Origin: a bacterium | Lineage (GTDB): Bacteria > JAHJDO01 | Reading direction: 5' to 3' | Assembly (NCBI GenBank): GCA_018812485.1 | Contig: JAHJDO010000042.1 | Span: 9,512-73,511 of the forward strand | Length of the DNA: 64,000 nt | Shown: positions 2,918-62,746 of the stretch, in pieces | Position numbering within the stretch: position 1 is the stretch's first letter | How the letters are laid out: every line of letters starts with the position of its first letter | Notes under the pieces: generated by a model | The model's input: only the letters and a program-made list of their open reading frames with translations | Told to the model about the DNA's origin: nothing | Database searches by the model: none | Program-made: the position numbers and the translations under genes

Positions 2918-2972
2918 TTTTTAACCACCTTCTCTTTCGCGTTGTAACAGCTATGCTTTAGTTCAAACTCAT

Positions 2973-3684: not shown

Positions 3685-3720
3685 TCGCAGCGCTGTTAAA
3701 AACATATTATGGGAGAAAGT

Positions 3721-23740: not shown

Positions 23741-23750
23741 TACGAGGAAA

Positions 23751-36988: not shown

Positions 36989-37007
36989 ATTTAAAGGAAT
37001 TAAAGTC

Positions 37008-37625: not shown

Positions 37626-37647
37626 TGTTGTTGTAATCGGAGGTTTT

Positions 37648-40832: not shown

Positions 40833-40840
40833 TTGGCTGG

Positions 40841-46059: not shown

Positions 46060-46869
46060 ATGAATACAGGAGAAAGACCTATTTCAGATTCATTTGAATC
46101 ATTACCCTCGCTTATGAAAGAAACGTATAAACTTTGTATAGAATATGTCAAAAATAAAGACGTATTAGATATTGGCTGCGGTGAAGGTTATGTAGATCTG
46201 TATCTCAGTGATGTGGCTAAACATGTGGCTGGCATAGATGTTGATCAAGGAGTTGTAGACAAAGCAAATAAACTATTTTCCGAAAAAAATATGACTTTTT
46301 ATAGAATGTCAGGTGATGATTTAAAATTCCAATCTAATTCATTTGATGTTATTATATCGTCGCAGTCTATTGAGCATATGAAAAATGATGAAAAATTCTT
46401 AAGCGAGGTACATAGGCTATTGAAAAACAATGGGATTTTTATTTGTACAACACCTAATAAACTTGCAATGGTTCCTCCGGGTGAAAAGATATATAATGAT
46501 CCGTTTTATCCATTTCACGTTAGAGAATACATGCCCCATCAATTCTATGGTTTATTGAGCAAGTATTTCAGAGAAGTCAAAAAGGTCTGTTTTTATAATC
46601 CTGATCGAAGCCTAAAATTGATTAAAAATCCAAGAGCAAAATTTATTTATCGAATAAGCCGTTTTAGAATCGTTAGGTGGCTTGGCAGAAATTCACCGTT
46701 AAGCCTAAAAGAATTTATTTTGTTTTTTAGGCAGAAGGAGTTAAAACCAAAAGATATGGGAACAGCTGTTTGTGATTATAACGATAAGTTAGACCTAGTT
46801 CCAGAAGTTTTATGCGGTATATGTATAAAAATAGCCGAGAGGAATAAAAAGGGGAAAGATTCTGAATGA
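46060..46869 (+). CDS. Class I SAM-dependent methyltransferase
   Basis: Motif I is VLDIGCGEGYVDLYL, and DVIISSQSIEHM is a post-II motif. Confidence 0.65.
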   Translation: MNTGERPISDSFESLPSLMKETYKLCIEYVKNKDVLDIGCGEGYVDLYLSDVAKHVAGIDVDQGVVDKANKLFSEKNMTFYRMSGDDLKFQSNSFDVIISSQSIEHMKNDEKFLSEVHRLLKNNGIFICTTPNKLAMVPPGEKIYNDPFYPFHVREYMPHQFYGLLSKYFREVKKVCFYNPDRSLKLIKNPRAKFIYRISRFRIVRWLGRNSPLSLKEFILFFRQKELKPKDMGTAVCDYNDKLDLVPEVLCGICIKIAERNKKGKDSE

Positions 46870-48611
46870 ATATAAAACCTAATCAATATATTTTCTTTTT
46901 AATATTATACATAGTTTTACTAGCACTCGCGTTAGCCCCTTATTATATAAACAATACAATTATATTAGGTATGGAAGGCGACTATGTTTTGGATTTTTCC
47001 GCTCATTTAAGCAAATTTACTTTTATGTGGTTTCCCGTCTATGGCGTTGGTTTACAAAATATGTCTCCGAGCGGGACAGGTCTTAATATTCTTTTGCTTT
47101 GCTTAATTGAAAAGTTGACAGGAAGTATACCTATCACGAATTTTGTTTTAATATTTTCAATTTATTTCTTTCCCTTTTTAGCCATGTATTTAGTATGTAA
47201 GGCAATAAAAGCAACTCCTTTTACCTCGTTTGCTATAGCGCTCTTTTATGTTTTTAATCCTTTTGTACTTTATTATCTGACTTGCATAAATCAATGGAAT
47301 GTTTTTGGTGTGACTGTAATGCCCATGTTTTTATGGGTTATCTTGAAGTACTATCATAGCAATTTTAAATTATTCTTTTTCTTTGGACTTATATCAGCGT
47401 GTTTTTCCTTTACTTATAGCAATCCCCCAATACTGGTAATAATACACATTTCAGTTGTGTTTTCCATGGTTATGGTGTCTTATTATCGTAATAAAAAATT
47501 TATCCTTTTAGAAATACTCAAAAAATATAGCATTGTAATTGTATCATTTATTGCATTCAATCTTTGGTGGATTTTGAACCTTTTTGTTGGGGCAGTAGCA
47601 ACCGCGAAAGAAATATATTCAGCCTCGTGGGCGCACTCTTGGTTAAACACAACAGTAAGCGGGCATAGGCCTATCCTTGCCAGGATGTTTTCTATTACAA
47701 CAATGATTGGAATTAACCCTTCATGGGACTTCTTTACGTGGTGGTATAGTACCATGCTTGCGAGATTAATTACTCTTGTCCCTATTTTTATGATAATTTA
47801 TTTCGTGCTGATGGTTAAAAGTAAAAAAACGAGAAATTCATTAAATCTAGCAATTTTTAGCACATTATTACTTGTATTATTTTTTGTAAAAGGGAATGCA
47901 AGTCCGTTTGGTTTTATTTACGATTTAATGTTCAAACATCTCCCATTTTTTTATATCTTTAAATCTCCTGTGGAAAAATTTGGACTCCTCTATATATTTA
48001 TTTTATCTGTGTTGCTGTTATTGATTATGAACGGTATTAAGGCTCATAAGTACTATAAACCAATCCTGTGTATATTTACAGTTTACTTAATCGTTTGCAG
48101 TGTACCTGTTCTTACAGGGAATATTATCCCCGATTATAATCTTGGCTCTTTGGGATATGGTTCGAGAAAGTATAAAGATAAAAATGGATACAGGCAGTTT
48201 AGAGAATCAGTTAATAAGGATAATTTCCAGTATAGAATTTTTAGTTTACCTGGTGTTGGAAACTATCAGGTATGTCTGCCTAACTATAACGGCAAGAAAT
48301 ACACCGGATTAGATCCTGTTCTCATGAATACTAATAAGCCTTTTATTGCGCCTTATAACGGAATAGGTGTACTATACAATAATATCTCTTCAGCTAAGTA
48401 TGCAAAACTTTTGGGAATATATAATATCGGGAAAATAATGATTAATGAAGATCTTATACCATGGTTTGGAATCATGGAAAAGGAAAGCATTCCGGAATTA
48501 AAAACAATATTTGATAAATCCATGGCATCAAAAAAATGGGAAAACATAACTCTTTACAATAATGAAGATTATTTTTTGCCGCGTATTTACACTTCAGGTA
48601 ATTCTAATTGA
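46866..48611 (+). CDS. Polytopic integral membrane protein (GT-C/YfhO-like or polymerase-like; function unknown)
   Basis: The 581-aa translation has at least 12 transmembrane segments in the first ~430 aa and a ~150-aa C-terminal soluble domain. Its N-terminus resembles that of the final ORF in the window. Confidence 0.4.
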   Translation: MNIKPNQYIFFLILYIVLLALALAPYYINNTIILGMEGDYVLDFSAHLSKFTFMWFPVYGVGLQNMSPSGTGLNILLLCLIEKLTGSIPITNFVLIFSIYFFPFLAMYLVCKAIKATPFTSFAIALFYVFNPFVLYYLTCINQWNVFGVTVMPMFLWVILKYYHSNFKLFFFFGLISACFSFTYSNPPILVIIHISVVFSMVMVSYYRNKKFILLEILKKYSIVIVSFIAFNLWWILNLFVGAVATAKEIYSASWAHSWLNTTVSGHRPILARMFSITTMIGINPSWDFFTWWYSTMLARLITLVPIFMIIYFVLMVKSKKTRNSLNLAIFSTLLLVLFFVKGNASPFGFIYDLMFKHLPFFYIFKSPVEKFGLLYIFILSVLLLLIMNGIKAHKYYKPILCIFTVYLIVCSVPVLTGNIIPDYNLGSLGYGSRKYKDKNGYRQFRESVNKDNFQYRIFSLPGVGNYQVCLPNYNGKKYTGLDPVLMNTNKPFIAPYNGIGVLYNNISSAKYAKLLGIYNIGKIMINEDLIPWFGIMEKESIPELKTIFDKSMASKKWENITLYNNEDYFLPRIYTSGNSN

Positions 48612-49784: not shown

Positions 49785-50711
49785 ATGGATAAAGATACAA
49801 AAATTTATATTGCAGGTCATACCGGCTTGGTAGGATCAGCAGTTGTAACGGCATTTAAGAAAGAAAGATATAGAAATATAGTAACAAAGACTCATCAAGA
49901 ACTTGATTTGTTACAGCAATCAGATGTTGAGAATTTTTTCAAAGCAGAAAGACCAGAATGCGTTATTTTAGCTGCAGCGAAGGTTGGGGGGATTAAGGCT
50001 AACATAGACTATCCAGCTCAATTCATCTATGACAATCTTACAATTCAGACCAATGTAATTCATTTATCATATAAGTATGGAGTTAAAAAACTTTTGTTTT
50101 TTGGAAGTGCGTGTGCCTATCCACGTGAGTGTTCCCAACCGATGAAGGAGGAATACTTGCTTTCAGGATATTTAGAGCCAACGAATGAGCCATATGCTGT
50201 TGCAAAAATTGCAGGAATAAAGCTATGCGAGGCTTATAATAAACAGTATAGCACAAATTTTATATGTGGAATTCCTGCCACTATTTACGGTCCCAATGAT
50301 AATTTTGACCCTGATAATTCTCATGTAATTCCTGCTTTAATAGCTAAGTTTCATGAAGCCAAAGTAAAAAATTTACCTTCAGTTACAATCTGGGGCTCGG
50401 GAAAACCGCGTAGAGAATTCGTATACGTGGAAGAGGTTGCTGAGGCTTGTCTTTTTTTGATGCATAACTGCGATGAAGATGTTATCAATGTTGGATGTGG
50501 AGAGGATATATCTGTTAAAGATTTAACTCTGCTTATAAAAGATATTGTCAGATTTGAAGGAGAGATAACTTTTGACAGATCAAAACCTGATGGTATGTTG
50601 AAAAAACTTTTAGATAATAGTAAAATCAAAAGCTTAGGTTGGAAGGCGAATGTTAACCTTGAGGAAGGACTCAAGAGAACCTATGAGTGGTATAAAAAGG
50701 GCATAAAATGA
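49785..50711 (+). CDS. fcl: GDP-L-fucose synthase family enzyme: 4-keto-6-deoxy sugar 3,5-epimerase/4-reductase (Fcl, or the homologous GDP-L-colitose synthase ColC)
   Basis: KIYIAGHTGLVGSAV, AAAKVGGI, LEPTNEPYAVAKIAGIKLCEAYNKQY, SHVIPALI and GSGKPRREF align block-for-block with E. coli Fcl. Confidence 0.8.
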   Translation: MDKDTKIYIAGHTGLVGSAVVTAFKKERYRNIVTKTHQELDLLQQSDVENFFKAERPECVILAAAKVGGIKANIDYPAQFIYDNLTIQTNVIHLSYKYGVKKLLFFGSACAYPRECSQPMKEEYLLSGYLEPTNEPYAVAKIAGIKLCEAYNKQYSTNFICGIPATIYGPNDNFDPDNSHVIPALIAKFHEAKVKNLPSVTIWGSGKPRREFVYVEEVAEACLFLMHNCDEDVINVGCGEDISVKDLTLLIKDIVRFEGEITFDRSKPDGMLKKLLDNSKIKSLGWKANVNLEEGLKRTYEWYKKGIK

Positions 50712-51640
50712 AAATATTAGTTACTGGAGCTGCAGGATATATAGGCTCTGTATTAGTTCCTGAGTTGTTAAAGAACGAGCACAGCGTAATTGCCGTAGAT
50801 AACTTTATGTACAATCAAGCATCTTTACTGAATTGTTGTTGTGATGAAAAGTTTACTTTGATTCGTGGAGATGCACGTGACAAAAGTTTAATTGCTAAAT
50901 GTTTGAAAAAAGCGGATGTAATTATTCCATTAGCCTGTTTTACAGGGGCGCCTCTTTGTAAAAAGTATCCGTCTGAGGCTAGACTGGTAATTGTAGATGC
51001 TGTAAAGATGATATTGAAATTGCGCAGTAAAGAGCAAATAATTGTTTATCCTACTACTAACAGTGGTTATGGAATAGGACAAAAAGATGTTTATTGTACT
51101 GAAAAAACTCCTTTAAGCCCTGTCTCTTTATATGGAAAACTAAAAGTGGAAACAGAGAAAAACTTATTAGACTCAGGCAATACTATTACCTTAAGACTTG
51201 CAACAGCTTTCGGAATTAGCCCTCGTATGCGACTTGACCTTTTAGTTAATGATTTTACTTACCGTGCAGTAACAGATCATTTTATTGTTCTTTTTGAGGC
51301 GCATTTTAAGCGAAACTATATTCATGTTCGCGACGTGTCCAAGGCGTTTATTTACTCTTTGAGTAATTTTGAGCGAATGAAAAATGAACCCTATAATGTT
51401 GGCTTAAGTAATGCTAACTTAGATAAGTGGGAGTTATGTGAAGAGATTAAAAAACAAATTCCGGAATTTGTTTTTATTGAAGCAGAAATTGGAGAGGATC
51501 CGGATAAGAGGGATTATATCGTAAGCAATGAAAAAATTGAGAAGACAGGATTCAGGCCTGATGTATCTCTGCAAGATGGGATAACAGAATTAATAAAAGG
51601 ATACCAGATTATCCAAAAAAATCAGTTTTCCAATATTTAG
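50708..51640 (+). CDS. NAD-dependent epimerase/dehydratase of the extended SDR family
   Basis: The Rossmann motif is ILVTGAAGYIGSVLV, and YGKLK is the YxxxK motif. Confidence 0.65.
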   Translation: MKILVTGAAGYIGSVLVPELLKNEHSVIAVDNFMYNQASLLNCCCDEKFTLIRGDARDKSLIAKCLKKADVIIPLACFTGAPLCKKYPSEARLVIVDAVKMILKLRSKEQIIVYPTTNSGYGIGQKDVYCTEKTPLSPVSLYGKLKVETEKNLLDSGNTITLRLATAFGISPRMRLDLLVNDFTYRAVTDHFIVLFEAHFKRNYIHVRDVSKAFIYSLSNFERMKNEPYNVGLSNANLDKWELCEEIKKQIPEFVFIEAEIGEDPDKRDYIVSNEKIEKTGFRPDVSLQDGITELIKGYQIIQKNQFSNI

Positions 51641-51690
51641 GTAGATTTACTGGCACTTATGTTCAGTAGAATTAAAGATGTGAGAGTGAT

Positions 51691-53199
51691 ATGAAAAGTT
51701 CAACAGATGTTTTATTTATAAATCCCGGTAATCATAAAAAAACATATCAAGGTTTATCAAAAGAATTCACAGCAATTGCTCCACCTGTCTGGACATCTTT
51801 ATTAGCTAATTATATCCGCAAGGAGGGGTACAGCGCTGCAATTTATGATGTAAATGTTGAAGGCTGGGATAATGGCAAAGTGAAAGAGATAATAGCCGGA
51901 TATAATCCTAATTTAGTTGTTATGATGGTTTATGGTCATCATCCGTCTGCTTCTACGCAAACAATACCGTCTGCAGGCCAAATAGCAAGAGACATAAAAA
52001 TATATAACAGGGATATTCCGGTTGCAATGGGAGGAACGCACCCTTCTGCTTTACCTGAAAGGACGCTTGGAGAAGAAGATATTGATTTTGTGATACAGGG
52101 AGAAGGAGTATATACAATAAAAGGATTAGCAGACTGGACAAAAGGGAAGAGAGATATTAAGAAGATAAAGGGATTATGGTGCAAAAATGGGAACCTAACA
52201 TCTTTCACAACACCGCCACCTGTTGTTGAAAACTTGGATGATGAGCTGGATAATTATGCATGGGATTTGTTACCTGAAATAAATAATTACAGAGCCCATA
52301 ATTGGCACTGTTTTCAAGAATTTGAAAAAAGCAGGCAGGATGATTTTTTAGATGTCAGAACGCCTTATATCGCAATGAACACATCTTTGGGATGTCCCTA
52401 CTCATGTAACTATTGCTGCATAAATGCGATATTTGGGAAACCTCGCATAAGATACTGGTCGTTAGATAGGGTTTTTTTATGGATTGATACACTTGTCAAC
52501 AGATATAAAGTAAAGAGCATAAGATTTGATGATGAACTTCTTATATTATCTTCTAAAAGAATGGAGAGATTTTGTGATATGCTCATTGAAAGAAGTTACG
52601 ACTTGAATCTTTTTGCGTATGGGAGAGTTGATACTATTCAGGAGAAACTTCTCGGGAAATTGAAAAAGGCAGGAGTGAATTGGATATGCCTTGGAATAGA
52701 ATCTGCAAATGAAAAGGTGAGAGCAGGGGTAAACAAAAAGATAAAAAAAGATATAAAAGAAGTGGTTAGAATGATACAGAGTAATAATATAAATGTTCTC
52801 GGCAATTATATGTTTGGTTTGCCTGATGACAATCTGGAAACAATGGAAGAAACACTTCAACTGGCGATGGAATTAAATTGCGAATTTGCCAATTTCTATA
52901 GCGTAATGGCTTATCCAGGTTCAGCATTGTATGAATGGGCATCTAATAAGAACGGTTATTTACCAAAATCATGGGGAGCATTTTCTCAGCACAGTTATGA
53001 AACTCAACCTTTGCCTACCAAATATCTCCCAGCGAAAGACGTATTAAAGTTCAGAGATGAAGCATATTTAAGATACTTTGAAAATCCAAGGTATTTGAAA
53101 CATGCAAAAGATAAGTTTGGACAAAAAGTAGAATCTCATATACAAAAGATGACGCAAATAAAATTAAAAAGAAAATTATTGGAGGAGAATTTATGTTAA
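51691..53199 (+). CDS. B12-binding-domain radical SAM protein (class B-like)
   Basis: The N-terminal B12-like domain (VLFINPGNH...LVVMMVYGHH) precedes TSLGCPYSCNYCCINA. Confidence 0.75.
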   Translation: MKSSTDVLFINPGNHKKTYQGLSKEFTAIAPPVWTSLLANYIRKEGYSAAIYDVNVEGWDNGKVKEIIAGYNPNLVVMMVYGHHPSASTQTIPSAGQIARDIKIYNRDIPVAMGGTHPSALPERTLGEEDIDFVIQGEGVYTIKGLADWTKGKRDIKKIKGLWCKNGNLTSFTTPPPVVENLDDELDNYAWDLLPEINNYRAHNWHCFQEFEKSRQDDFLDVRTPYIAMNTSLGCPYSCNYCCINAIFGKPRIRYWSLDRVFLWIDTLVNRYKVKSIRFDDELLILSSKRMERFCDMLIERSYDLNLFAYGRVDTIQEKLLGKLKKAGVNWICLGIESANEKVRAGVNKKIKKDIKEVVRMIQSNNINVLGNYMFGLPDDNLETMEETLQLAMELNCEFANFYSVMAYPGSALYEWASNKNGYLPKSWGAFSQHSYETQPLPTKYLPAKDVLKFRDEAYLRYFENPRYLKHAKDKFGQKVESHIQKMTQIKLKRKLLEENLC

Positions 53200-54023
53200 A
53201 AGATTTTAGAAAATTGGAAGATAAAGCCCATTACATCTGCAATCAAGTTTTGGATATGTGTATTAAGGCGGGTACTGGACATGTTACATCTTCACTTTCG
53301 TGCGCAGAAATTCTTGTAGCGCTTTATTATGGAGGAATACTTAATTATGATGCTTCTAATCCTGAGTGGTGTGATCGGGATAGATTTGTCCTGAGCAAGG
53401 GACAAGCAAGTCCTATTTTGTATACAATATTGGCTGATGTCGGGTTTTTCCCAAAAACTAAACTGGCTAAGTTTGGCCAGGCAAATGGTGCTGTTGGAGT
53501 TCATATGCAGTGCGATGTTGCCGGAGTAGAAATTACTGCTGGTTCCCTGGGTCATGGTTTAGGGATTGGGGCAGGTATGGCACTTGCGGCAAGAATGGAT
53601 AGAAAGCATTATCTGACTTTTGTTCTTTTGGGAGATGGAGAATGCCATGAAGGCTCAATATGGGAGTCTGCCATGTTTGCAGGTCATCACCAACTAAATA
53701 ATTTAATTACCATAGTTGACAGAAATTGGCTTTGCGCTACGGACTTTACAGAAAATTGCGTTCGTCTCGATCCTATGGATGAAAAATGGAAAGCATTTGG
53801 TTTTGAGGTAGTTAGTATTAATGGGCATAGTTTTCAGGAAATCTTTAGTGCTCTTGATGGATTTCGTTCAAGGAGACTCCATAAGCCATTAATGATTATT
53901 GCAAACACGGTGAAAGGTAAGGGAATAAGTTTTATGGAAGATCAACCGTTATGGCATTCTGTAGCTCCCAAAGGCAAAGACGCTAAAAGAGCAAAAATTG
54001 AGTTAAGTAAAAGAGGAGAGTAA
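53193..54023 (+). CDS. Transketolase N-terminal (TPP-binding) subunit of a split transketolase
   Basis: GHVTSSLSCAEILVALYY is the histidine TPP-binding block, and LLGDGECHEGSIWES is the GDG-x-x-EG diphosphate-binding motif. Confidence 0.8.
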   Translation: MLKDFRKLEDKAHYICNQVLDMCIKAGTGHVTSSLSCAEILVALYYGGILNYDASNPEWCDRDRFVLSKGQASPILYTILADVGFFPKTKLAKFGQANGAVGVHMQCDVAGVEITAGSLGHGLGIGAGMALAARMDRKHYLTFVLLGDGECHEGSIWESAMFAGHHQLNNLITIVDRNWLCATDFTENCVRLDPMDEKWKAFGFEVVSINGHSFQEIFSALDGFRSRRLHKPLMIIANTVKGKGISFMEDQPLWHSVAPKGKDAKRAKIELSKRGE

Positions 54024-54027
54024 AAAA

Positions 54028-54963
54028 ATGGCAAGTATTACGATGAGGGATGCATTTTTTAATAAATTATATGAAATTGCTAAGAATGATAGAAATGTTA
54101 TTGTTGTTAGTGCTGATATGGGAGCTCCAAGTCTTGATAAGTTTAGAAGGGACTTACCTTCTCAATTTATCAATGTTGGTATAGCTGAACAAAATATGGT
54201 GACTGTTGCGACAGGTTTAGCTCTAACTGGCAAAAATGTTTATACTTACGCCATCATGCCGTTTGCTTCATTGCGATGTTATGAATTTATAAAAGTTGAT
54301 TTTTCTCTTATGAATATTGGTGTGACCACTATAGGTGTTGGTTCAGGCTTTGGTTATCCTGATTCAGGACCTACCCATCATTCTACAGAGGATATCTCTG
54401 CTTTGCGTGCGCTTCCAAATATGACGATACTAAATTCGTCTAGTAACCGGATGGTAGAAAAGTTTACGGAGATATCATATAACATGTCAACTCCATGCTA
54501 CATCAGGTTAGATAGAGGATTAGTGCCTGAAGTTTATGATAAAAGCGAAAATTTCTCCAATGGATTAGCAATGCTTAAAACAGGCAAAGACCTGTATATA
54601 ATTGCAACCGGGAATATGGTTGATCAAGCATTTAAAGTTGTTAAAAAGCTATCAGAACATTCTATAGATGCAGGGATTATCGATTTATATAGAATAAAGC
54701 CTATTAATACAAAATTACTCATAAAATACATAAAAAACGCGCATCGAATAGTAACATTGGAAGAACATTTTCTTGCTGGGGGAATGGGGTCTGCTGTTGT
54801 GGAAAATTTAACTGACAATGGGATAAGTATTCCAATTAAACGTATTGGGGTTCCGGATAAATATTATTATGCTTATGGCAATAGAGATGACATAAATCTT
54901 GAGTGTGGATTGGATACAGAGACTGTTGCTAAAATAATTTTAAAATGGGTAAAAAAGATCTAA
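54028..54963 (+). CDS. Transketolase C-terminal (pyrimidine-binding) subunit of a split transketolase
   Basis: INVGIAEQNMVTVATGLAL and GSGFGYPDSGPTHH are present. At 311 aa it is typical of the split TK-C subunit. Confidence 0.8.
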   Translation: MASITMRDAFFNKLYEIAKNDRNVIVVSADMGAPSLDKFRRDLPSQFINVGIAEQNMVTVATGLALTGKNVYTYAIMPFASLRCYEFIKVDFSLMNIGVTTIGVGSGFGYPDSGPTHHSTEDISALRALPNMTILNSSSNRMVEKFTEISYNMSTPCYIRLDRGLVPEVYDKSENFSNGLAMLKTGKDLYIIATGNMVDQAFKVVKKLSEHSIDAGIIDLYRIKPINTKLLIKYIKNAHRIVTLEEHFLAGGMGSAVVENLTDNGISIPIKRIGVPDKYYYAYGNRDDINLECGLDTETVAKIILKWVKKI

Positions 54964-54987
54964 CTAGGTAAACAAACTGACAAAATA

Positions 54988-55980
54988 ATGATTATTAGCA
55001 GAACTCCATTTCGAATCTCTTTTTTTGGAGGTGGAACTGATTATCCTGTCTGGTATAGAGAGAATAGCGGAGCAGTTCTTTCAACAACTATAGATAAATA
55101 TTGTTATATAACTTGTCGGCGACTCCCTCCTTTCTTTGAATACAAGCACAGAATTGTCTATTCAAAGTACGAACATGTTAACGAAATAGATGAAATTGTG
55201 CACCCTGCCGTTAGAGAGGCATTTAGATTTATGGATATTAAGGATGGATTAGAGATACATCATGACGGGGACCTCCCCGCGCGATCCGGTCTAGGATCGA
55301 GTTCGTCTTTTACTGTAGGGTTATTGCATGCTCTATATGCTTTAAAAGGGGAAATGGTTACAAAAAAACGCTTGTCTCTTGAAGCTATTCATATTGAGCA
55401 GGAGATGATAAAAGAAAATGTAGGTTCACAAGACCAGGTGAGTGTAGCGTTTGGAGGCCTAAATAAGATTGAATTTTCCGGTAATCATGATATTGAAGTC
55501 AGACCCATAACTATAAGAGAGCCGAGGTTGCAGGAATTGCAGGATTGTTTAATGCTATTTTTTACTGGTTTTACAAGGATAGCTTCAGATGTAGCAGGAG
55601 ATAAAATATCTCAAATCCCAAATAAAAAGAAGGAACTTAATATATTGCATGATATGGTTAATAACGCTATAGATATCTTAAATGGAAACTATGACCTTGT
55701 TGAATTTGGCAAATTGCTTGATGAAAGCTGGAAAATTAAGAAAAGTTTGTCTAGTAAAGTATCAAACAGGAACATAGACAATATTTATGAGAGCGCAATT
55801 AAGGCTGGTGCAACTGGTGGGAAGATTTTAGGCGCTGGTAGTGGGGGCTTTATTTTGTTTTTTGTGAGGCCTGAGAAAAGAGATAGAGTAAAGAAAGCAT
55901 TAAGTCCTTTATTGCACGTGCCTTTTCGTTTTGATAAAACAGGAAGCCAGATTATTTATTATAGTGAAAGCGGAGTGTAA
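54988..55980 (+). CDS. GHMP-family sugar kinase, HddA-like (D-glycero-D-manno-heptose 7-phosphate kinase / fucokinase type)
   Basis: SRTPFRISFFGGGTDYP is the N-terminal signature of HddA-type kinases, and GLGSSSSFTVGLLHAL is the GHMP ATP-binding motif. Confidence 0.7.
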   Translation: MIISRTPFRISFFGGGTDYPVWYRENSGAVLSTTIDKYCYITCRRLPPFFEYKHRIVYSKYEHVNEIDEIVHPAVREAFRFMDIKDGLEIHHDGDLPARSGLGSSSSFTVGLLHALYALKGEMVTKKRLSLEAIHIEQEMIKENVGSQDQVSVAFGGLNKIEFSGNHDIEVRPITIREPRLQELQDCLMLFFTGFTRIASDVAGDKISQIPNKKKELNILHDMVNNAIDILNGNYDLVEFGKLLDESWKIKKSLSSKVSNRNIDNIYESAIKAGATGGKILGAGSGGFILFFVRPEKRDRVKKALSPLLHVPFRFDKTGSQIIYYSESGV

Positions 55981-55983
55981 TAA

Positions 55984-57183
55984 GTGAAAATTCCTTTTGG
56001 AACAATTTCTATAACGAAAAAATCCAGAGAATTAATAAAAGAAATTCTCAAATCAAATAGATTATCCAGTGGGAAGCACGTAAGAGAATTCGAAAAAAAA
56101 TTCGCAAAACTTATAGGCACAAAAGAAGCGATTGCGGTTAGCAGTGGAACTGATGCTCTTGTGTTAGCATTGGCAGTGTTATATGAATTTGGCGCAAGAC
56201 GGGGAGACGAGATCATAGTTCCAGCCCTATCGTTTGTAGCAACAGGCAATGCTGTGTTGCATGCTGGGTTTACTCCTGTTTTTGTGGATATTAATAAAAA
56301 AACTTTAAATATTGACTGTTCTAAGATTGAAGGCGTTATTACAAAAAAGACCAAAGCGATTTTGCCTGTTCATTTAATGGGGAAGCCTGCAGATATGGAT
56401 ACCATAAATAGTATTGCAAAAAAACACAATCTCTATGTAATTGAAGATGCAGCAGAGGCGCACGGAGCAGTCTATAAGAACAAAAATATAGGCACTATAG
56501 GGGATATGGCTGCATATAGTCTTTATGTTGCGCACATAATCAGTACTGTAGAAGGAGGCATTATTACTACAGATAATCAGAACTTTGCTGAAACAATAAG
56601 GTCATTAAGAAGTCATGGGAGAGCATGTAAGTGTGAAAGCTGTGTGCTTAATACTGCATCTGCTTATTGTCCAAAGAGGTTTAAGTATAAAGATAATGCA
56701 GATATTAGATTTATATTTGAACGAGTCGGTTTTTCATCTAAGATGAATGAGATGGAGGCAGCAATAGGGATCGGGAACCTGGATATATATAATGATATTC
56801 TTAGCAGAAGAAGAGAAAATCTTTATTATCTTATAAAAAAATTCAAAAATTTTGAACCCTATATGGCAACAATAGAAAAGGAATCTTATGAGGAGATAGG
56901 GCCACACGCTTTTCCCATGATTATTCAAGAGGGTGTAAAATTTACCCGTAATCAGCTTGTAACTTTTCTAGAAAAAAATGAGATTGATACAAGAAGCTTG
57001 TTCTCTTCTATGCCCACGCAATGTCTTGGCTTTAAATTCTTGGGTTATAAAGAAGGAGATTTTCCAAATGCTGAGTACATAGGAGAACATGGGATTCATA
57101 TAGGAGTCCATCAGGATTTAGATAAAGAGAAATGCGATTACATTATTAATACAATAGGAAAATTTTTATCAAAAAATGGCTAG
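55984..57183 (+). CDS. DegT/DnrJ/EryC1 fold PMP/PLP-dependent sugar 3-dehydratase (ColD/E1-like), with His in place of the usual internal-aldimine Lys
   Basis: GDEIIVPALSFVATGNAV and especially SLYVAHIISTVEGGIITTD align with ColD SFYSHHIATMEGGCIVTDD. Aminotransferases of this fold carry Lys where this protein has His. The start is a GTG at 55984. Confidence 0.55.
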   Translation: MKIPFGTISITKKSRELIKEILKSNRLSSGKHVREFEKKFAKLIGTKEAIAVSSGTDALVLALAVLYEFGARRGDEIIVPALSFVATGNAVLHAGFTPVFVDINKKTLNIDCSKIEGVITKKTKAILPVHLMGKPADMDTINSIAKKHNLYVIEDAAEAHGAVYKNKNIGTIGDMAAYSLYVAHIISTVEGGIITTDNQNFAETIRSLRSHGRACKCESCVLNTASAYCPKRFKYKDNADIRFIFERVGFSSKMNEMEAAIGIGNLDIYNDILSRRRENLYYLIKKFKNFEPYMATIEKESYEEIGPHAFPMIIQEGVKFTRNQLVTFLEKNEIDTRSLFSSMPTQCLGFKFLGYKEGDFPNAEYIGEHGIHIGVHQDLDKEKCDYIINTIGKFLSKNG

Positions 57184-57748
57184 GACGTCTAAAAAAGTAC
57201 AACCATGGCAACTATTGTCTACTAAAGAGTTGTTTGCAGTTTCTCCCTGGATTAAAGTTTATGAAGATACGATAAAACTTCCCAGTGGGAGAATCGTTGA
57301 GGATTATTATCGGATTGCACTTCCTGAATATGCAATGATTTATGCTCAGAGAAAGGATGGAAAGGTTCTCTTTGAACGACAATATAAACATGGTCTTGGG
57401 AAAATAACACTTGTTTTGCCAGCAGGAGCTCTGGAAAAAGGGGAAAGGGCTATTGAAACTGCAAAAAGAGAACTGCTTGAAGAAACAGGTTACCAGGCAG
57501 GTAGATGGAAATATGTTGGGTCATTTTTAGTGAATGGAAATAAAGGATGCGGAAGAGCTCACTTTTTTATTGCAAAAGAACTAGAAAAGATTTCTGAGCC
57601 GGTAATTGATGATATGGAGGAACCTGAAATTGTGTTTATTTCTGAGCATTCTATCATGAAGGCAATATTTAACGGTGAAATTTCTACTCTTGCTACTGCG
57701 TCTTTAGTAGCAATTGCAACAAACCCCGCTATATCCCAAATCTATTAG
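57176..57748 (+). CDS. NUDIX hydrolase (likely an NDP-sugar pyrophosphatase)
   Basis: The Nudix box is GALEKGERAIETAKRELLEETGY (GX5EX7REUXEEXGU). Confidence 0.7.
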   Translation: MARTSKKVQPWQLLSTKELFAVSPWIKVYEDTIKLPSGRIVEDYYRIALPEYAMIYAQRKDGKVLFERQYKHGLGKITLVLPAGALEKGERAIETAKRELLEETGYQAGRWKYVGSFLVNGNKGCGRAHFFIAKELEKISEPVIDDMEEPEIVFISEHSIMKAIFNGEISTLATASLVAIATNPAISQIY

Positions 57749-57766
57749 ATAAATAAAGATAGAATA

Positions 57767-58468
57767 ATGAAAGCTATTATTTTGGCAGGCGGATTTGGTT
57801 TGCGTTTACGTGGAACCGTTAAGAATTTACCAAAACCAATGGCTCCGATAACCGGAAGACCTTTCCTTGAATACTTAGTATTACAGCTTAAAAAATGGGG
57901 AATTAACGAAATAATACTTGGGGTAGGATATCTAAAAGGAAAAATTAAATCTTATTTCGGTAATGGCAAACAGTGGGATGTGCATATTATATATTCTGAG
58001 GAAAATAAGCCCTTAGGAACAGGGGGAGCTATCAAGAAGGCGGTTGAATTAATAGATGATGATGAGTTTTTGGTAATGAATGGAGATTCTTTTCTTGATT
58101 TGGATTTCAATCGGATTATTAGTTTTCATCGGAAACAAAAAGCAGTAGCTACTATAGGTATAACCTGTGTTGATGATTTAAGCCGTTATGGTAAGGTAGA
58201 AATTAATAGTAAAAACGAGGTAATTAAGTTTGTTGAAAAAGATTCTGATGTGGGCAGATTTATTAATGGAGGAGTGTACGTCTTCACTCGTAAGATTATT
58301 AATTGCATTCCTATGGGTAAAGTTTCTTTGGAACATGATGTTTTACCTGCCCTTATCAATCAAGGATTATATGGTATGATAACAAAAGGGTTCTTCGTAG
58401 ATATAGGCGTGCCTCAGGATTTCTTTGACCTATGCAAAAATCCCGAAAAGTTATTGAATGCTGTATGA
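57767..58468 (+). CDS. Sugar-1-phosphate nucleotidyltransferase, HddC-like (heptose/mannose-1-phosphate guanylyltransferase type)
   Basis: MKAIILAGGFGLRLRGTVKNLPKPMAPITGRPFLEYLVLQLKKWGINEIILGVGY closely parallels the HddC/GmhD N-terminus. It is a short (233 aa) single-domain nucleotidyltransferase. Confidence 0.7.
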   Translation: MKAIILAGGFGLRLRGTVKNLPKPMAPITGRPFLEYLVLQLKKWGINEIILGVGYLKGKIKSYFGNGKQWDVHIIYSEENKPLGTGGAIKKAVELIDDDEFLVMNGDSFLDLDFNRIISFHRKQKAVATIGITCVDDLSRYGKVEINSKNEVIKFVEKDSDVGRFINGGVYVFTRKIINCIPMGKVSLEHDVLPALINQGLYGMITKGFFVDIGVPQDFFDLCKNPEKLLNAV

Positions 58469-58492: not shown

Positions 58493-60616
58493 ATGTGCGA
58501 TTTCTTTATGAGAGATAAACAAGGATTATTGGCTTTAATAATAGGTGTTTGTCTTTTATTTTGCCTTACTACAAGTTCTTTTTCTGAGTCGACATTAGTT
58601 GAAGGCAATAGTGACTTGATTGTTTTTACTTATACTAAGTATTTAGATGGTAAGCCAGTTTTAATTTTTAGTGAACAAGTATCAGAAAAGTTATCCAATC
58701 TACTCAATAAAGTCGATAATATAGTATTTTGTGATAGTACCCGGCAGGATTTGGCGCTGAAGTTAATTAAGGGAAAGTCAGAGGCAGAAGTTTGGCAGAG
58801 AATGAAGAGCTCTGAACCTGAGATAGCGTACATATTTACAAAAGATGGGGAATTCTATGTGCCAGAAACCATTAAAAATTATGAGTTAAAGGTAAAACTA
58901 AAGCCAAAGGCAGTAGAATCCCGCGTTTACATAAGACCAAAGATACTATCTGACACTTCCCTTCTTGATTCTGGAGCACAACATATGCCTCACGAAGATT
59001 TTCCAGATATTATACTTCAAGGAACTCCCGTATTATTCACCAAAGATATAGAGGCGGATTTAGAAGAATTTCCTGCTTTTAAGCTGGAAGCAGAATTTGA
59101 GAACAAGGGATCAAGTAAGTTACTTATATACCTCGGAATTGATTATACAGGAGATAATATTATTGATAGTTGTCTGAAATTCGAAGATGTGAGTGTGTGT
59201 GAATATAATATTTTTGAATTGGCAAAAACTAAATGGAAAAAGTTCAATAAATTTGTATTAAAAGAAATCTGCTTTCAGATTTTGCCTGAGGATAAAAAAA
59301 AGAATGAGAAAGAAAAAGCAGAAGCAGGGATTTTTAGGATAAAAGATATAAGTTTATTTAACGAGAATTCATTGGCCGTAGTGGAAAAAAAGTATCAGAG
59401 AGCTCAATTGAAATTTCAAGAAGTGAATGCTAAATCCAGCATTATAGAAAAGGATGATACAATTAATATCTCTGTTTGCGTTGAGGATGAACCTGTAGAG
59501 AAGGATCACAAAAAAAAGAGAACCGGGAAGATAAAGATTCAAGTTCCGCTAGAGATAAGAAATTTCCATTATTTTTCATTTAATTATGAATTAGAGGATC
59601 CGGAATTTCAGGATATTAAACTTGCAATTTCAATAAATAAGGAGAATAAAAGAAGGACAATTGGTATTCCTGCAAGCCGGTATACAAAACTTAGAGAAAC
59701 CCAAAAGATAGAAGTCAATCTTAAAAGGATAATCCCTAAAGGATATGAAGTTGAAGATTTAATTATTATACTTGAGCAGAAAGAACTTGATGAAAATGTT
59801 TCTCGAAAAAATAAGTGGCGTCGATTTCAGTTGGCTAATCTCCAGTTATACGAGAAATTTCCTTATTCTTTAAAAACAGAGCAGGGAAAAGAAAATTTTT
59901 TATCTTTGTTATCAATAGTAAATCCACCTCTTGTAAAAATAGATAATCAAATTTTCCACTTAAATGATTTTGTAAGTTGGAAAAATTTCAAAGATTTAGA
60001 AAACAATATTTTGCTAAAGAAATTCGCATTTTCAGTGGGAGAGCATAAGTATGAAAAATTTGAAAATGAAACTTTAGATGTTGAATGGGTGATAATAGAA
60101 CCAGAGGGCGGAGGACAGAGGACAGAGGGCAGAAATGGACCAGAGATTACGTTTAAAAAGATAAATCCTGTAAAATATTTGGTAAAGGTTAAAGGAGCAA
60201 AATCTGCTTTTTGGATGGTGTTTAGTGAGAGTTTTCATAAGCAGTGGAAACTTTATAAAATCAAAAATCAAAAATCAAAAATCAAAAATTTATTTGATGA
60301 AATTGTGGCGGATTATCCGGAATTAGGAGTAAAAGAAGCAAAGAAACTTGTAAAGTTTATTCCTCAGGATATAAACTTTTTATTTGAAAAACCATTAGAA
60401 GCGTCACATCAACTGGTTAATACTTATGCCAATGGTTGGTATATAGAGCCAAGAAAACTGGGATTAGGAGAGGATTTTGTTTTGACAATATATTTCTGGC
60501 CTCAAAGTTTATTTTATCTTGGACTTGGAATATCTGGGCTAACGTTACTTTGTTGTTTAATTTATTTGACATATAGATGTTTTCCCTTCTCTGTCAAGAG
60601 AAGGGGTAGGAGGTGA
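58493..60616 (+). CDS. Secreted/cell-surface protein with an N-terminal signal-anchor and a C-terminal transmembrane helix; it contains an in-frame heptanucleotide simple repeat
   Basis: The N-terminus LLALIIGVCLLFCLTTSSFS is hydrophobic. The body is K/E-rich and soluble. The C-terminus FYLGLGISGLTLLCCLIYLTY is a transmembrane helix followed by a basic tail RRGRR. I recognise no catalytic motif. Confidence 0.4.
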   Translation: MCDFFMRDKQGLLALIIGVCLLFCLTTSSFSESTLVEGNSDLIVFTYTKYLDGKPVLIFSEQVSEKLSNLLNKVDNIVFCDSTRQDLALKLIKGKSEAEVWQRMKSSEPEIAYIFTKDGEFYVPETIKNYELKVKLKPKAVESRVYIRPKILSDTSLLDSGAQHMPHEDFPDIILQGTPVLFTKDIEADLEEFPAFKLEAEFENKGSSKLLIYLGIDYTGDNIIDSCLKFEDVSVCEYNIFELAKTKWKKFNKFVLKEICFQILPEDKKKNEKEKAEAGIFRIKDISLFNENSLAVVEKKYQRAQLKFQEVNAKSSIIEKDDTINISVCVEDEPVEKDHKKKRTGKIKIQVPLEIRNFHYFSFNYELEDPEFQDIKLAISINKENKRRTIGIPASRYTKLRETQKIEVNLKRIIPKGYEVEDLIIILEQKELDENVSRKNKWRRFQLANLQLYEKFPYSLKTEQGKENFLSLLSIVNPPLVKIDNQIFHLNDFVSWKNFKDLENNILLKKFAFSVGEHKYEKFENETLDVEWVIIEPEGGGQRTEGRNGPEITFKKINPVKYLVKVKGAKSAFWMVFSESFHKQWKLYKIKNQKSKIKNLFDEIVADYPELGVKEAKKLVKFIPQDINFLFEKPLEASHQLVNTYANGWYIEPRKLGLGEDFVLTIYFWPQSLFYLGLGISGLTLLCCLIYLTYRCFPFSVKRRGRR
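60261..60288 (+). repeat. Perfect tandem heptanucleotide simple repeat, (TCAAAAA) x 4, inside the coding sequence
   Basis: It is read directly at 60261-60288, with flanking A-runs extending it to about 60257-60290. It encodes ...KIKNQKSKIKN... Confidence 0.85.
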
Positions 60617-60626
60617 GTTAAAAACA

Positions 60627-61577
60627 GTGAAACAAAAAATTAGATATATAATTTTCATTGTTTTATTAGGTTTTGTTATAGGTTTTTTATATAACCACAT
60701 CGTAATTCAAGACTCTTATAGGAAAGATCTGTTCTGCTATAAGAATAGTATTAAATTACATAATTCAGAATACATTAACCTAACCTACATAATTCGTTAT
60801 AAAGAAACCCTGCTTCTGAAAATAGTTTCTTCATCTGCAAAAAAAACAATTGTTTTTAATAATAAAGTTTTAACCCCGTATAAAACACAAAAACACTTTA
60901 GAAAATTAAATAATCTTTTCGTGAAAGAATATTATACGAAACCTATTGATTATGTTCTTATCCCAGCAGATATAGTAAATGTCGGAAAGAATTTACTCAA
61001 AATATCATTCCTGCAAGATGTTCGTGATTGCGTAACAATAAAAATGGGGAATTACCATCGCAATACTAATGATCAGATATTTATCTTATTTAAAGATTCT
61101 CATGTTTTGCCCTTAAAGAAAAGCTCTATTACATATCTATATTCAGCCTTGATTGTCTTATCTCTATCTTTGTTATTAGCGTGGATATCGAAAATTTTAT
61201 TTATTAGAAGACTAGGAACGAAAAAGGATGATATTTATTTAAAGATTCTCATTTTCTTTCTACCTGCGAATATTTTATTTTTTCCAGCATATATAATCCC
61301 AAGAATAGTTGAGCTGAGATTATTTACTACAGCAAGGTTTTTTTATATGCTACAAGCAGTTTCGTTAGGTATTATGTATTCTATATTTTTATATAATTGT
61401 AATAAGGGAATAATAATTGAAAATATTGAGAAATCGTATGCAGACTTAAGAAAGGGGTTTTTGCCAGTACATGCTTTTATGATTGCTATAACCATTATAA
61501 TTATACGCTGTCTAAGATATTTGCGCTCACGAATGATATCACTTTGGCAGTCTATTTCGCGTGTCTTGGATACTTAG
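60627..61577 (+). CDS. Membrane protein, copy 1 of a tandem paralog pair (function unknown)
   Basis: An N-terminal transmembrane helix, a ~150-aa extracytoplasmic region, then 4-5 transmembrane helices. The GTG start at 60627 has an upstream GGAGGTGA. It is at least 70% identical to the next gene. Confidence 0.5.
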   Translation: MKQKIRYIIFIVLLGFVIGFLYNHIVIQDSYRKDLFCYKNSIKLHNSEYINLTYIIRYKETLLLKIVSSSAKKTIVFNNKVLTPYKTQKHFRKLNNLFVKEYYTKPIDYVLIPADIVNVGKNLLKISFLQDVRDCVTIKMGNYHRNTNDQIFILFKDSHVLPLKKSSITYLYSALIVLSLSLLLAWISKILFIRRLGTKKDDIYLKILIFFLPANILFFPAYIIPRIVELRLFTTARFFYMLQAVSLGIMYSIFLYNCNKGIIIENIEKSYADLRKGFLPVHAFMIAITIIIIRCLRYLRSRMISLWQSISRVLDT

Positions 61578-62660: not shown

Positions 62661-62746
62661 CAGAGCAGCTGGCAAGTATTGCGTATCTTGCATTGTGTTT
62701 TGGTGTCATTATTAAGTTGGTAAAATCAGTAAGAGAAAAAGATTGA
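61637..62746 (+). CDS. Membrane protein, copy 2 of a tandem paralog pair with an extended C-terminus
   Basis: MKRKVRYIIFSGLL... is collinear with copy 1 and has extra C-terminal transmembrane helices. Confidence 0.5.
   Translation: MKRKVRYIIFSGLLSLIISFFYNCSVIPDSYEKELFFYEDSIKLRDSKYINMTNLIPYKETLLLKIASLYKRKTIIFNNKILIPYKTKKYSRKLKNLFVKEYYIKPVDYVLITADIVNVGKNSLKVSFPRDVRDCVTIKIGNYHRNTNDQIFILFKDSHVLSLKKSSITYLYSALIVLSLSLLLAWISKILFIRRLGTKKDDIYSKILISFLPANILFFSTYMISMTADLKLFVTSGYFYMLQMISLGITYSIFLYNCNKEIIIENIEKSYADLRKGFLPVHAFMIAVIVIITRCLRYLHSRTILFWRWLKSRSFSDKCVILFMFLLIVCTLLLIAHLEIAAEQLASIAYLALCFGVIIKLVKSVREKD

Follow-up and report, generated by a model that had tools for sequence, protein, structure and literature searches.

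A candidate GDP-heptose tailoring cassette with a split transketolase-like enzyme and a cobalamin-binding radical SAM enzyme in a bacterial glycan cluster

Identification of the gene block

Analysis of a 64-kb stretch of bacterial DNA (contig JAHJDO010000042.1, positions 9,512 to 73,511; hereafter the window) revealed nine plus-strand open reading frames (ORFs) at window positions 49785-58468. With slightly better than even confidence, we read this block as a cassette for a GDP-activated, modified heptose that would feed the surrounding glycosyltransferases, its tailoring including a thiamine diphosphate (ThDP)-dependent enzyme and a cobalamin (B12)-binding radical S-adenosylmethionine (SAM) enzyme. 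The proposal that the sugar is branched at C4 is held with lower confidence than this overall model. One gene product is closely similar to the Campylobacter jejuni heptose C4-dehydrogenase Cj1427, and the same gene set recurs near relatives of the kinase gene in dozens of unrelated genomes, an arrangement far from chance.

The start and end of the block matched the coordinates of the initial annotation exactly, and the nine ORFs were confirmed as genes. In order, the intergenic gaps were -4, 50, -7, 4, 24, 3, -8, and 18 nt, with three pairs overlapping; nine ORFs on one strand at a spacing of -8 to +50 nt were therefore considered one operon-like block. Families were assigned by Pfam and NCBIfam profile searches, and the NCBIfam equivalog cutoff was reached by none of the nine ORFs. 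Seven of the enzyme families named initially were recovered, but beside the Fcl homolog only one further extended short-chain dehydrogenase/reductase (SDR) was present instead of two: in place of a third SDR, the 502-aa ORF at 51691-53199 encodes a B12-binding radical SAM protein (PF02310, PF04055), which the initial annotation had not mentioned. The nine features are as follows:

49785-50711, plus strand: SDR of the GDP-fucose-synthase family (Fcl; NF047922 449.5 bits, cutoff 500), predicted NADPH-dependent C3/C5-epimerase and C4-reductase of GDP-4-keto(-3-deoxy)-heptose
50708-51640, plus strand: Cj1427-like extended SDR (full-length match to PDB 6VO6/6VO8), predicted GDP-D-glycero-α-D-manno-heptose C4-dehydrogenase that would recycle its NADH with α-ketoglutarate
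51691-53199, plus strand: cobalamin-binding (class B) radical SAM enzyme, 502 aa (PF02310 2.8e-16, PF04055 1.2e-15)
53193-54023, plus strand: split transketolase-like ThDP enzyme, N-terminal (diphosphate-binding) subunit (PF00456 6.4e-38)
54028-54963, plus strand: split transketolase-like ThDP enzyme, C-terminal (pyrimidine-binding plus C domain) subunit (PF02779, PF02780)
54988-55980, plus strand: HddA-like GHMP anomeric kinase (Pfam GHMP N and C domains; best NCBIfam match HddA), predicted D-glycero-D-manno-heptose-7-phosphate 1-kinase
55984-57183, plus strand: pyridoxamine phosphate (PMP)-dependent sugar-nucleotide C3-dehydratase of the E1/ColD type (PF01041 2.4e-102; RfbH 277 bits)
57176-57748, plus strand: Nudix nucleoside-diphosphate-sugar hydrolase (PF00293; intact Nudix box GALEKGERAIETAKRELLEETGY)
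57767-58468, plus strand: HddC-like sugar-1-phosphate guanylyltransferase (PF00483 3e-38; best NCBIfam match HddC)

Distribution and conservation of the cassette

The kinase family gave more than 8000 database matches, with 70-93% identity among the matches listed and 57-73% in 80 genome loci. Relatives were present in at least 586 species genomes, and their taxa included Omnitrophota, Nitrospirota, Planctomycetota (including Brocadia and Kuenenia), Chloroflexota, Elusimicrobiota, Patescibacteria, a Methanoperedens archaeon, and the isolate Desulfospira joergensenii. The module proteins were compared with the 80 kinase loci, ORFs from approximately 83 loci were clustered de novo, and co-occurrence was counted in 40 independent loci with full 10-kb flanks around the kinase. 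A two-subunit ThDP enzyme was encoded in 37 of these 40 loci (transketolase type in 26, pyruvate dehydrogenase (PDH)-E1 α/β type in 13, both in 2). The same number contained a C4-oxidizing SDR, which was either Cj1427-like (29) or a GMD-like 4,6-dehydratase (8), never both. An NTP-transferase lay within 10 kb of the kinase in 34 loci, and orthologs of the B12-radical SAM enzyme, the DegT-type dehydratase with its characteristic His, the Fcl-like SDR, and the Nudix hydrolase were found in 26, 19, 18, and 3 of the 40, respectively. Accessory genes recovered by ORF clustering in related cassettes included RmlC-type epimerases (157.9 bits, cutoff 155.75) and methyltransferases.

The genomic setting of some related cassettes was also recorded. 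In a Brocadia metagenome-assembled genome (locus L003, 1-13606), the cassette lies directly 3' of fliW and csrA, a position that hints at glycosylation of flagellin in this bacterium. Two further loci belong to anammox genomes, of Brocadia (L031) and of Kuenenia hertensis (L054). The S-layer O-glycan of Kuenenia stuttgartiensis contains an unidentified residue of 174.09 Da, reported as a putative dimethyl-deoxyhexose (PMC5088730); a mono-methyl-dideoxyheptose or a branched sugar of the yersiniose type would have the same formula, C8H14O4.

Two SDRs: a Cj1427-like dehydrogenase and an Fcl-like epimerase-reductase

The second SDR aligned with PDB 6VO6/6VO8 over its full length (408 bits), with 181 of 308 residues identical (59%), and has the motifs TNSGYG, RLATxFGxSPRMRLDLLVNDF, and RNYIHVRD in common with 6VO6. 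We take 6VO6 to be Cj1427 on the basis of its PDB title and its 313-aa length; with the 6VO6 sequence as query, the top cluster was that of a 313-aa C. jejuni protein (96% identity to the cluster representative). At the level of sequence, this likeness ties the module to GDP-heptose far more firmly than do the kinase and the transferase, and it was the strongest new support for the initial interpretation, in which a deoxy-heptose, likewise supported, was one of the product classes suggested. Cj1427 oxidizes GDP-D-glycero-α-D-manno-heptose at C4 to GDP-D-glycero-4-keto-D-lyxo-heptose and recycles its tightly bound NADH with α-ketoglutarate, which is reduced to L-2-hydroxyglutarate; in vitro, Raushel's group combined it with the HS:5 C3-dehydratase to obtain GDP-D-glycero-3-deoxy-4-keto-heptose (PMC10680097). 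Genes for an L-2-hydroxyglutarate oxidase (336.8 bits, cutoff 299) were found in six related cassettes (L060, at 8128-9342, L009, L049, L056, L064, and L070). Such an oxidase fits the recycling of the by-product of a Cj1427-type dehydrogenase, the cycle itself being predicted here.

The score of the Fcl-like SDR lies under the equivalog cutoff and therefore indicates family membership, not equivalence. Its closest structures were the GDP-fucose synthases 8DU0 (343 bits) and 1BWS (330 bits), and comparison with the heptose C4-reductases of C. jejuni gave 333 bits for DdahC (7ANH) and 280 bits for MlghC (7ANC); judged by these alignments, it is equally close to both groups. The protein keeps equivalents of the Cys109/His179 dyad (GSACAYP, NSHVIPA) and the YAVAK motif of the Ser-Tyr-Lys triad, in agreement with the initial assignment to an Fcl/ColC-like family. 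Across 32 cassette orthologs, no frequent motif variant lacked the dyad Cys, and most had the His. This epimerization dyad has been lost from MlghC (Tyr/Arg) and DdahC (Thr/His), which show no epimerase activity (PMC7949155). No RmlC-type epimerase was encoded in the 64-kb window, and the Fcl-like enzyme is therefore likely a bifunctional epimerase-reductase.

The transketolase-like ThDP pair and the B12-radical SAM enzyme

The nearest structural match of the N half of the ThDP pair was the N chain of the split transketolase of Carboxydothermus (6YAK, 238 bits), and the C half matched the same enzyme (6YAJ, 158 bits) and 1-deoxy-D-xylulose-5-phosphate synthase (DXS; 109 bits). The ThDP/Mg motif was kept in the N half (LGDGECHEGS...VDRN) and the cofactor-activating Glu in the C half (VGIAEQN). 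Residues were compared with the C. hydrogenoformans split transketolase and human transketolase and are given in E. coli numbering, in which His66, His461, and Asp469 are presumably invariant substrate-binding residues. The C half keeps the equivalents of His473 (PTHH) and Arg358, and has Gly at the position of His461 and Ser at that of Asp469. In E. coli transketolase, His461 contacts the substrate phosphate and Asp469 a substrate hydroxyl. In the N half, the His66 equivalent is Gln (SKGQASP), consistently so in its own subgroup of 11 loci; other cassette subgroups have instead lost the equivalents of His26 and His100. In an exhaustive search of the C-subunit family, Gly occupied the His461 position in each of the 150 best representatives, so that His was absent from all of them, and no cassette copy has His there either. 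The missing substrate residues, together with the Gly shared by these representatives, therefore indicate a large non-canonical family rather than a housekeeping transketolase.

The initial annotation had regarded the pair as a supplier of a ketose phosphate such as sedoheptulose-7-phosphate. This was not sustained, given the missing canonical substrate residues and the occurrence of a PDH-E1-like pair in its stead in approximately one third of the related cassettes. Because the pair alternates with E1-type pairs and tracks the C4-oxidizing SDR, it is most likely a ThDP carboligase that would act on GDP-4-keto-heptose. ThDP-dependent branching of nucleoside diphosphate (NDP)-keto sugars is established for YerE-type enzymes in yersiniose and erwiniose biosynthesis (PMC9306805), and PDH-E1-like αKADH2 pairs are established as keto-sugar branching enzymes for aldgamycin, kibdelomycin, and others; for split-gene transketolases this role is a proposal only, with 13 predicted cases, all in Streptomycetes, e.g., miharamycin (PMC12247030).

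The radical SAM motif CxxxCxxC of the 502-aa enzyme reads CPYSCNYC (residue 235). Only weak NCBIfam matches to HpnJ, BchE, and PhpK were obtained (best HpnJ, 132 bits, cutoff 578), and the structural search returned weak core-domain matches to 9CCB and AprD4, which were uninformative on the reaction. Identity was 63-68% to cassette orthologs of other phyla vs. 23-27% to five paralogs in the same window. The gene overlaps that of the transketolase N subunit by 7 nt, the order radical SAM enzyme, N subunit, C subunit is conserved in the subgroup to which the window belongs (identity across phyla 63-68% and 60-62%), and in 18 of 39 loci the radical SAM gene is the immediate neighbor of the ThDP pair. 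This conserved adjacency therefore suggests that its function is coupled to the ThDP step. The reaction is presumed to be C-methylation or other radical C-C chemistry on the sugar; some related loci carry a KedN5-type B12 C-methyltransferase instead.

Heptose activation

Against the HddA model of NCBIfam, the kinase scored 165.5 bits (cutoff 600), and its four nearest PDB chains were all heptokinases: HddA of C. jejuni (4N3O), WcbL of Burkholderia pseudomallei (4USK/4USM), and the Bacteroides thetaiotaomicron enzyme 3K85. The transferase scored 180.7 bits against HddC (NF049965, cutoff 300), tied with the model for mannose-1-phosphate guanylyltransferase; its best structural match was HddC of Yersinia pseudotuberculosis (5XHW/6JQ8, 145 bits), followed by GDP-mannose pyrophosphorylases. 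These nearest structures support the GDP-heptose activation by HddA and HddC that had been suggested initially, and the profile searches returned HddA and HddC rather than an unrelated specificity such as GalK or GlmU. The window also encodes a GT9 heptosyltransferase-like protein.

The two further enzymes of heptose activation, the isomerase GmhA and the phosphatase GmhB, were found in related loci, where GmhA-like (TIGR00441 181 bits, cutoff 209) and GmhB (TIGR00213 150.1 bits, cutoff 149.6) genes flank the kinase. Among the approximately 83 clustered loci, an SIS protein was encoded in 18 and a HAD protein or an HddC-GmhB fusion in 14, mainly in lineages without lipopolysaccharide (LPS); the HddC-GmhB fusions were found in seven loci. 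With LPS and diderm lineage labels assigned by hand from record titles, gmhA or gmhB lay inside the cassette in 9 of 11 loci of lineages without LPS vs. 9 of 45 diderm loci (Fisher p = 2.4e-4), which is the pattern expected if diderm hosts borrow both enzymes from the heptose synthesis of the LPS core.

The 3-dehydratase and the Nudix hydrolase

The DegT-family protein scored 277 bits against the RfbH/E1 model of NCBIfam (cutoff 423). Its segment SLYVAHIISTVEGG aligned with FSFFGNKIITTGEGG of perosamine synthase, placing His194 at the catalytic (Schiff-base) Lys (AHIISTVEGG vs. NKIITTGEGG). Such a Lys-to-His exchange is what characterizes ColD and E1 among PMP-dependent C3-dehydratases, and the initial prediction of a PMP-type 3-dehydratase was thereby borne out. 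All 31 cassette orthologs aligned have the His, and 28 of the 31 have it together with a four-Cys motif. The protein aligned over its full length with both E1 (3BCX) and ColD (2GMS). Its insert C-K-C-x2-C-x8-C (CxCx2Cx8C, residues 215-229), also kept in orthologs among loci L003-L087, coincides in the alignment with C251-x-C253...C261 of the E1 Fe-S loop and has no counterpart in ColD. In E1 dehydrase (AscC/RfbH/DdhC), which works with the E3 reductase as partner, the [2Fe-2S] motif is C-X57-C-X1-C-X7-C. Judged by this alignment, the protein is more E1-like than ColD-like, and the initial label of a ColD-like enzyme was not retained; the conserved insert may hold a metal or an Fe-S center. The region equivalent to E1 Cys193 (IEDAAEAHGA) lacks a Cys, which counts against a strict E1 assignment, and de novo ORF clustering of the 83 loci revealed no E3-like reductase family conserved nearby.

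The Nudix box was identified with the pattern GX5EX7REUXEEXGU. The nearest structures were NudF of Bdellovibrio (5C7Q, 75.6 bits) and ADP-ribose pyrophosphatases, and a precomputed NDPSase_N domain is recorded for the protein. The hydrolase is probably an optional accessory for quality control or pool regulation. A role as stand-in for GmhB was considered, as the gene occupies the HAD position in the gene order, but was rejected because Nudix enzymes cleave diphosphate linkages and not a 7-phosphate monoester, and because the gene occurs in so few of the 40 loci.

Proposed pathway

A pathway to a modified GDP-heptose was drawn up in six steps, of which steps 1-3 rest on homology to characterized enzymes and steps 4-6 are what we infer. 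In step 1, D-glycero-D-manno-heptose-7-phosphate, supplied by a gmhA elsewhere in the genome, would be phosphorylated at C1 by the HddA-like kinase; a GmhB encoded elsewhere would then remove the C7 phosphate of the 1,7-bisphosphate, and the HddC-like transferase would form GDP-D-glycero-α-D-manno-heptose. The Cj1427-like SDR would convert this to GDP-D-glycero-4-keto-D-lyxo-heptose in step 2, keeping the 6-OH and turning α-ketoglutarate into L-2-hydroxyglutarate. In step 3, the His-type DegT enzyme would strip the 3-OH via a PMP adduct to give GDP-3-deoxy-4-keto-heptose. The transketolase-like heterodimer would in step 4 extend the keto sugar by two carbons, transferred as a glycolyl-type unit and most probably attached at C4, a step likened to those of the PDH-E1-like pairs in actinomycete branched sugars and of YerE in yersiniose. 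Step 5 would be a further radical step, C-methylation or other C-C chemistry, by the co-transcribed B12-radical SAM enzyme. In step 6, the Fcl-like enzyme would either epimerize and reduce the unbranched 4-keto intermediate to a second product (GDP-3-deoxy-L-heptose) or reduce the branch carbonyl. The Nudix hydrolase would trim or regulate the GDP-sugar pool.

Several observations weigh against this pathway. The kinase and the transferase score far under the equivalog cutoffs (165 vs. 600 and 181 vs. 300 bits), and the activated compound could therefore be another sugar phosphate. The lack of GmhA and GmhB noted initially held for the whole 64-kb window, in which profile searches found no SIS or HAD protein and hence no gmhA or gmhB; this absence would be explained because diderm hosts would borrow both from LPS-core synthesis. 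The four-Cys site of the dehydratase suggests an E1-type reductive mechanism, yet the cassettes have no conserved E3-like reductase family. In the transketolase pair, the equivalents of Arg358 and Arg520 are kept in the subgroup, so that a phosphorylated substrate is still conceivable, and the usual acceptors of transketolases are aldehydes. Of the split-gene transketolases proposed for keto-sugar branching, none has been characterized in vitro (PMC12247030). Finally, addition at C4 would use up the 4-ketone that the Fcl-like reductase needs, which implies two products or another role for one of the enzymes. Two products from one intermediate, reduction of the branch carbonyl, or lengthening of the side chain at an aldehyde may each resolve this conflict.

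A more specific outcome was also considered, to which we give a very small chance: the trio of the B12-radical SAM enzyme and the two ThDP subunits would convert GDP-3-deoxy-4-keto-heptose to a higher-carbon sugar, either C9-C10 branched or carbocyclic like caryose. Caryose is a 4,8-cyclo-3,9-dideoxy-nonose, and its formula fits a heptose with a two-carbon branch at C4 whose branch carbonyl carbon is joined to C7 by a radical step. A route to erwiniose or caryophyllose by C7 methylation and a C4 hydroxyethyl branch of a heptose was ruled out by the published route, in which YerE-like enzymes act on CDP-3,6-dideoxy-4-keto-glucose with long 2-oxoacid donors (PMC9306805).

Alternative explanations

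Among the alternatives, chain lengthening survived best, although it seems rather unlikely. In this case, the ThDP enzyme would extend the side chain of the GDP-heptose by two carbons at a terminal aldehyde (e.g., at C7 after oxidation, or after radical chemistry by the B12 enzyme), giving a linear nonose-type higher sugar. Aldehydes are the natural acceptors of transketolase/DXS-type enzymes, the Cj1427-like enzyme leaves the 6-OH and the C7 side chain intact, and the 4-keto group would stay free for the Fcl-like reductase, which would remove the C4 conflict; the tight coupling of the B12-radical SAM and transketolase genes could then mean a two-step reaction on the side chain. No enzyme that would form the aldehyde was identified, however, and branching by the known E1-type sugar enzymes always takes place at ketones. 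The co-occurrence with a C4-oxidizing SDR in 37 of 40 loci likewise points to the 4-ketone as the electrophile.

It is improbable that the split transketolase serves as a source of sedoheptulose-7-phosphate or another ketose phosphate, in a cassette that would make GDP-3-deoxy- or 3,6-dideoxy-heptose (or colitose) without C-C tailoring. The pair clearly belongs to the transketolase family, its ThDP motif, cofactor Glu, and equivalents of two phosphate-binding Arg residues are intact, and it adjoins gmhA in some loci (L005). Against a supplier role, it is replaced in 13 of 40 loci by PDH-E1-type pairs, which are incapable of producing sedoheptulose-7-phosphate (both types occur in 2), the equivalents of His66, His461, and Asp469 are replaced, and the pair correlates with the C4-oxidizing SDR and not with gmhA. 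Furthermore, such a role would leave the coupled B12-radical SAM gene unexplained, and the window contains no gmd or manC for colitose.

A similarly low probability was assigned to an activated sugar other than a heptose, e.g., a hexose, a 6-deoxyhexose, or a higher ketose or aldose built by the ThDP enzyme, with the Cj1427-like SDR oxidizing the matching GDP-sugar. The low HddA score of the kinase (165 bits vs. a cutoff of 600), the tie of the transferase with the mannose-1-phosphate guanylyltransferase model, and the absence of gmhA and gmhB from the window would agree with this, as would the unusually high conservation of the kinase clade and its specific link to ThDP enzymes, unlike HddA of C. 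jejuni. It is opposed by the 59% identity of the second SDR to Cj1427, by the heptokinase nature of all nearest kinase structures, and by the GmhA, GmhB, and HddC-GmhB fusions of related cassettes, which are enriched in lineages without LPS heptose genes.

GDP-colitose, the 3,6-dideoxyhexose offered initially as an alternative product, and GDP-fucose were rejected, as the window has no gmd, manB, or manC, its SDRs at 3709 and 4692 are CDP/dTDP-glucose-dehydratase-like, and the C4-oxidizing enzyme is of the heptose C4-dehydrogenase type, with the 6-OH kept.

Comparison with known pathways

The families and the order of chemistry predicted for the cassette are those of the capsular GDP-heptose pathways of C. 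jejuni (GmhA/HddA/GmhB/HddC, Cj1427, the HS:5 C3-dehydratase, MlghC/DdahC), in which GDP-D-glycero-α-D-manno-heptose is converted to the 4-keto and then the 3-deoxy-4-keto sugar and reduced. In C. jejuni, the pyridoxal phosphate (PLP)-dependent C3-dehydratase of HS:5 acts on the 6-deoxy series, and its pairing with Cj1427 was artificial (PMC10680097), whereas both types of enzyme are encoded in one operon here. The cassette reductase keeps the Cys/His dyad of the GDP-fucose synthases, unlike MlghC and DdahC (PMC7949155). The cassette further differs in the four-Cys insert of its dehydratase, in the absence of an RmlC-type epimerase, gmhA, and gmhB from the window, and in its ThDP and B12-radical SAM enzymes, neither of which occurs in the C. 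jejuni pathways.

With the GDP-colitose pathway (ManB/ManC, Gmd, ColD, ColC), the cassette shares a His-type PMP C3-dehydratase followed by an Fcl-homologous epimerase-reductase acting on a GDP-linked manno-configured sugar. It lacks Gmd, ManB, and ManC, its presumed heptose substrate keeps the 6-OH, and the E1-like Cys-rich insert of its dehydratase is absent from ColD. The CDP-3,6-dideoxyhexose/yersiniose pathway (E1/RfbH with E3, YerE, YerF) follows a similar logic, from a 3-deoxy-4-keto sugar through a ThDP-dependent branch to reduction, and the cassette dehydratase aligns over its full length with its E1, including the C-x-C of the Fe-S loop. That pathway uses CDP, a hexose, and a YerE-type decarboxylase-family enzyme, whereas the cassette would use GDP, presumably a heptose, and a split transketolase-like or E1-α/β-like enzyme; it lacks both an E3 reductase and a residue matching E1 Cys193, and possesses an additional B12-radical SAM enzyme.

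By enzyme type and gene setting, the ThDP pair was likened to the actinomycete αKADH2 enzymes (aldgamycin, kibdelomycin KbDH, paulomycin, avilamycin) and the proposed split transketolases of miharamycin and amipurimycin, where two-subunit ThDP genes lie beside keto-forming sugar-nucleotide enzymes. Both the E1 type and the split-transketolase type occur in the actinomycete set, as in the cassette family. The actinomycete enzymes belong to secondary-metabolite clusters and act on dTDP-deoxysugars or nucleoside cores, whereas the cassette, with GDP-heptose as presumed substrate, is set in cell-surface glycan clusters of Omnitrophota, Planctomycetota, Nitrospirota, Chloroflexota, candidate phyla radiation (CPR) bacteria, and one archaeon. 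The lincosamide GDP-octose pathway consists of the transaldolase LmbR, LmbN, the GHMP kinase LmbP, the phosphatase LmbK, and the guanylyltransferase LmbO. In this pathway, too, a C-C-forming enzyme of central sugar-phosphate metabolism works together with a guanylyltransferase and a GHMP anomeric kinase, and a GDP-activated higher-carbon sugar results, as in the model of a transketolase supplying a ketose phosphate. In the lincosamide case, however, the chain is built by the transaldolase before activation, whereas in the cassette the evidence puts the ThDP step later than activation and C4 oxidation.

The surrounding glycan cluster

The nine-gene block sits within an approximately 59-kb co-directional glycan cluster (window 3709-62746, GC ~35%), the remainder of which encodes a flippase, at least 10 glycosyltransferases, many methyltransferases, and unusually numerous radical SAM enzymes. 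With at least 12 radical SAM genes, the cluster has an extraordinary density of this family for a polysaccharide locus: six B12-binding members (starts at 7963, 31472, 32994, 34423, 44478, and 51691), five of the SPASM or other types (starts at 12790, 16623, 35933, 38954, and 42465), and a GT2-radical SAM fusion at 24946-26988. Two proteins encoded in the middle of the cluster (40017-41521), one with a phosphoribosyltransferase domain and the other a purine-nucleoside phosphorylase (287 bits, cutoff 218), may salvage 5'-deoxyadenosine or adenine from the numerous radical SAM enzymes.

At 18492-24902, a PMT_2-like membrane protein (586 aa), a YfhO-like giant membrane protein (1162 aa), and the GT9 heptosyltransferase-like protein are encoded in a row, which suggests transfer of the glycan to protein or polymer and use of heptose by the cluster. 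In the 779-aa product of the ORF at 29136-31475, a phosphodiesterase/sulfatase-like domain of the alkaline-phosphatase superfamily is fused to a class I methyltransferase domain. Sizeable ORFs at 58493-62746, 46866-48611, 41524-42468, 28259-29155, and 36978-38142 had no Pfam match even at E = 0.05, and a 707-aa Pfam-less protein encoded directly 3' of the module has hydrophobic segments at both ends. In the upstream flank (2213-3542, minus strand), a prepilin-type N-methylation/DUF1559 protein and an HTH-cupin regulator are encoded. Taken with best matches in Omnitrophota, the DUF1559 protein suggests that the DNA derives from a member of the Planctomycetota-Verrucomicrobiota-Chlamydiota (PVC) superphylum or from an Omnitrophota-like bacterium.

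Novelty and implications

Taken alone, the half of the cassette devoted to activation and deoxygenation is ordinary, as it corresponds to known Campylobacter chemistry. What is new is its fixed association with two further enzymes, a cobalamin radical SAM enzyme and a two-subunit ThDP enzyme of non-canonical type, and this association recurs in glycan clusters across many uncultured phyla as well as in at least one archaeon. Literature searches on the gene combination (transketolase with GHMP kinase and nucleotidyltransferase; GDP-heptose with radical SAM and transketolase) returned nothing relevant. For annotation, the cassette is a warning that genes labeled 'transketolase' in such clusters are not pentose-phosphate enzymes.

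Should the trio indeed form such a branched or carbocyclic higher-carbon sugar, the cassette would provide the first biosynthetic route to this class and would, for the first time outside Streptomyces, give split-gene transketolase ketone carboligases a functional context. The sugar would then be a widespread constituent of the surface glycans of Omnitrophota, anammox Planctomycetota, Nitrospirota, Chloroflexota, CPR bacteria, and Methanoperedens. If the broader model of a tailored GDP-heptose is correct, the cassettes would provide a large and tractable natural set of split-gene transketolase-like carboligases, for which a candidate substrate can already be prepared in vitro (PMC10680097), as well as new biocatalysts for tertiary alcohols. 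Their products would constitute an undescribed family of branched or extended heptose-derived surface sugars on environmentally dominant anaerobes.

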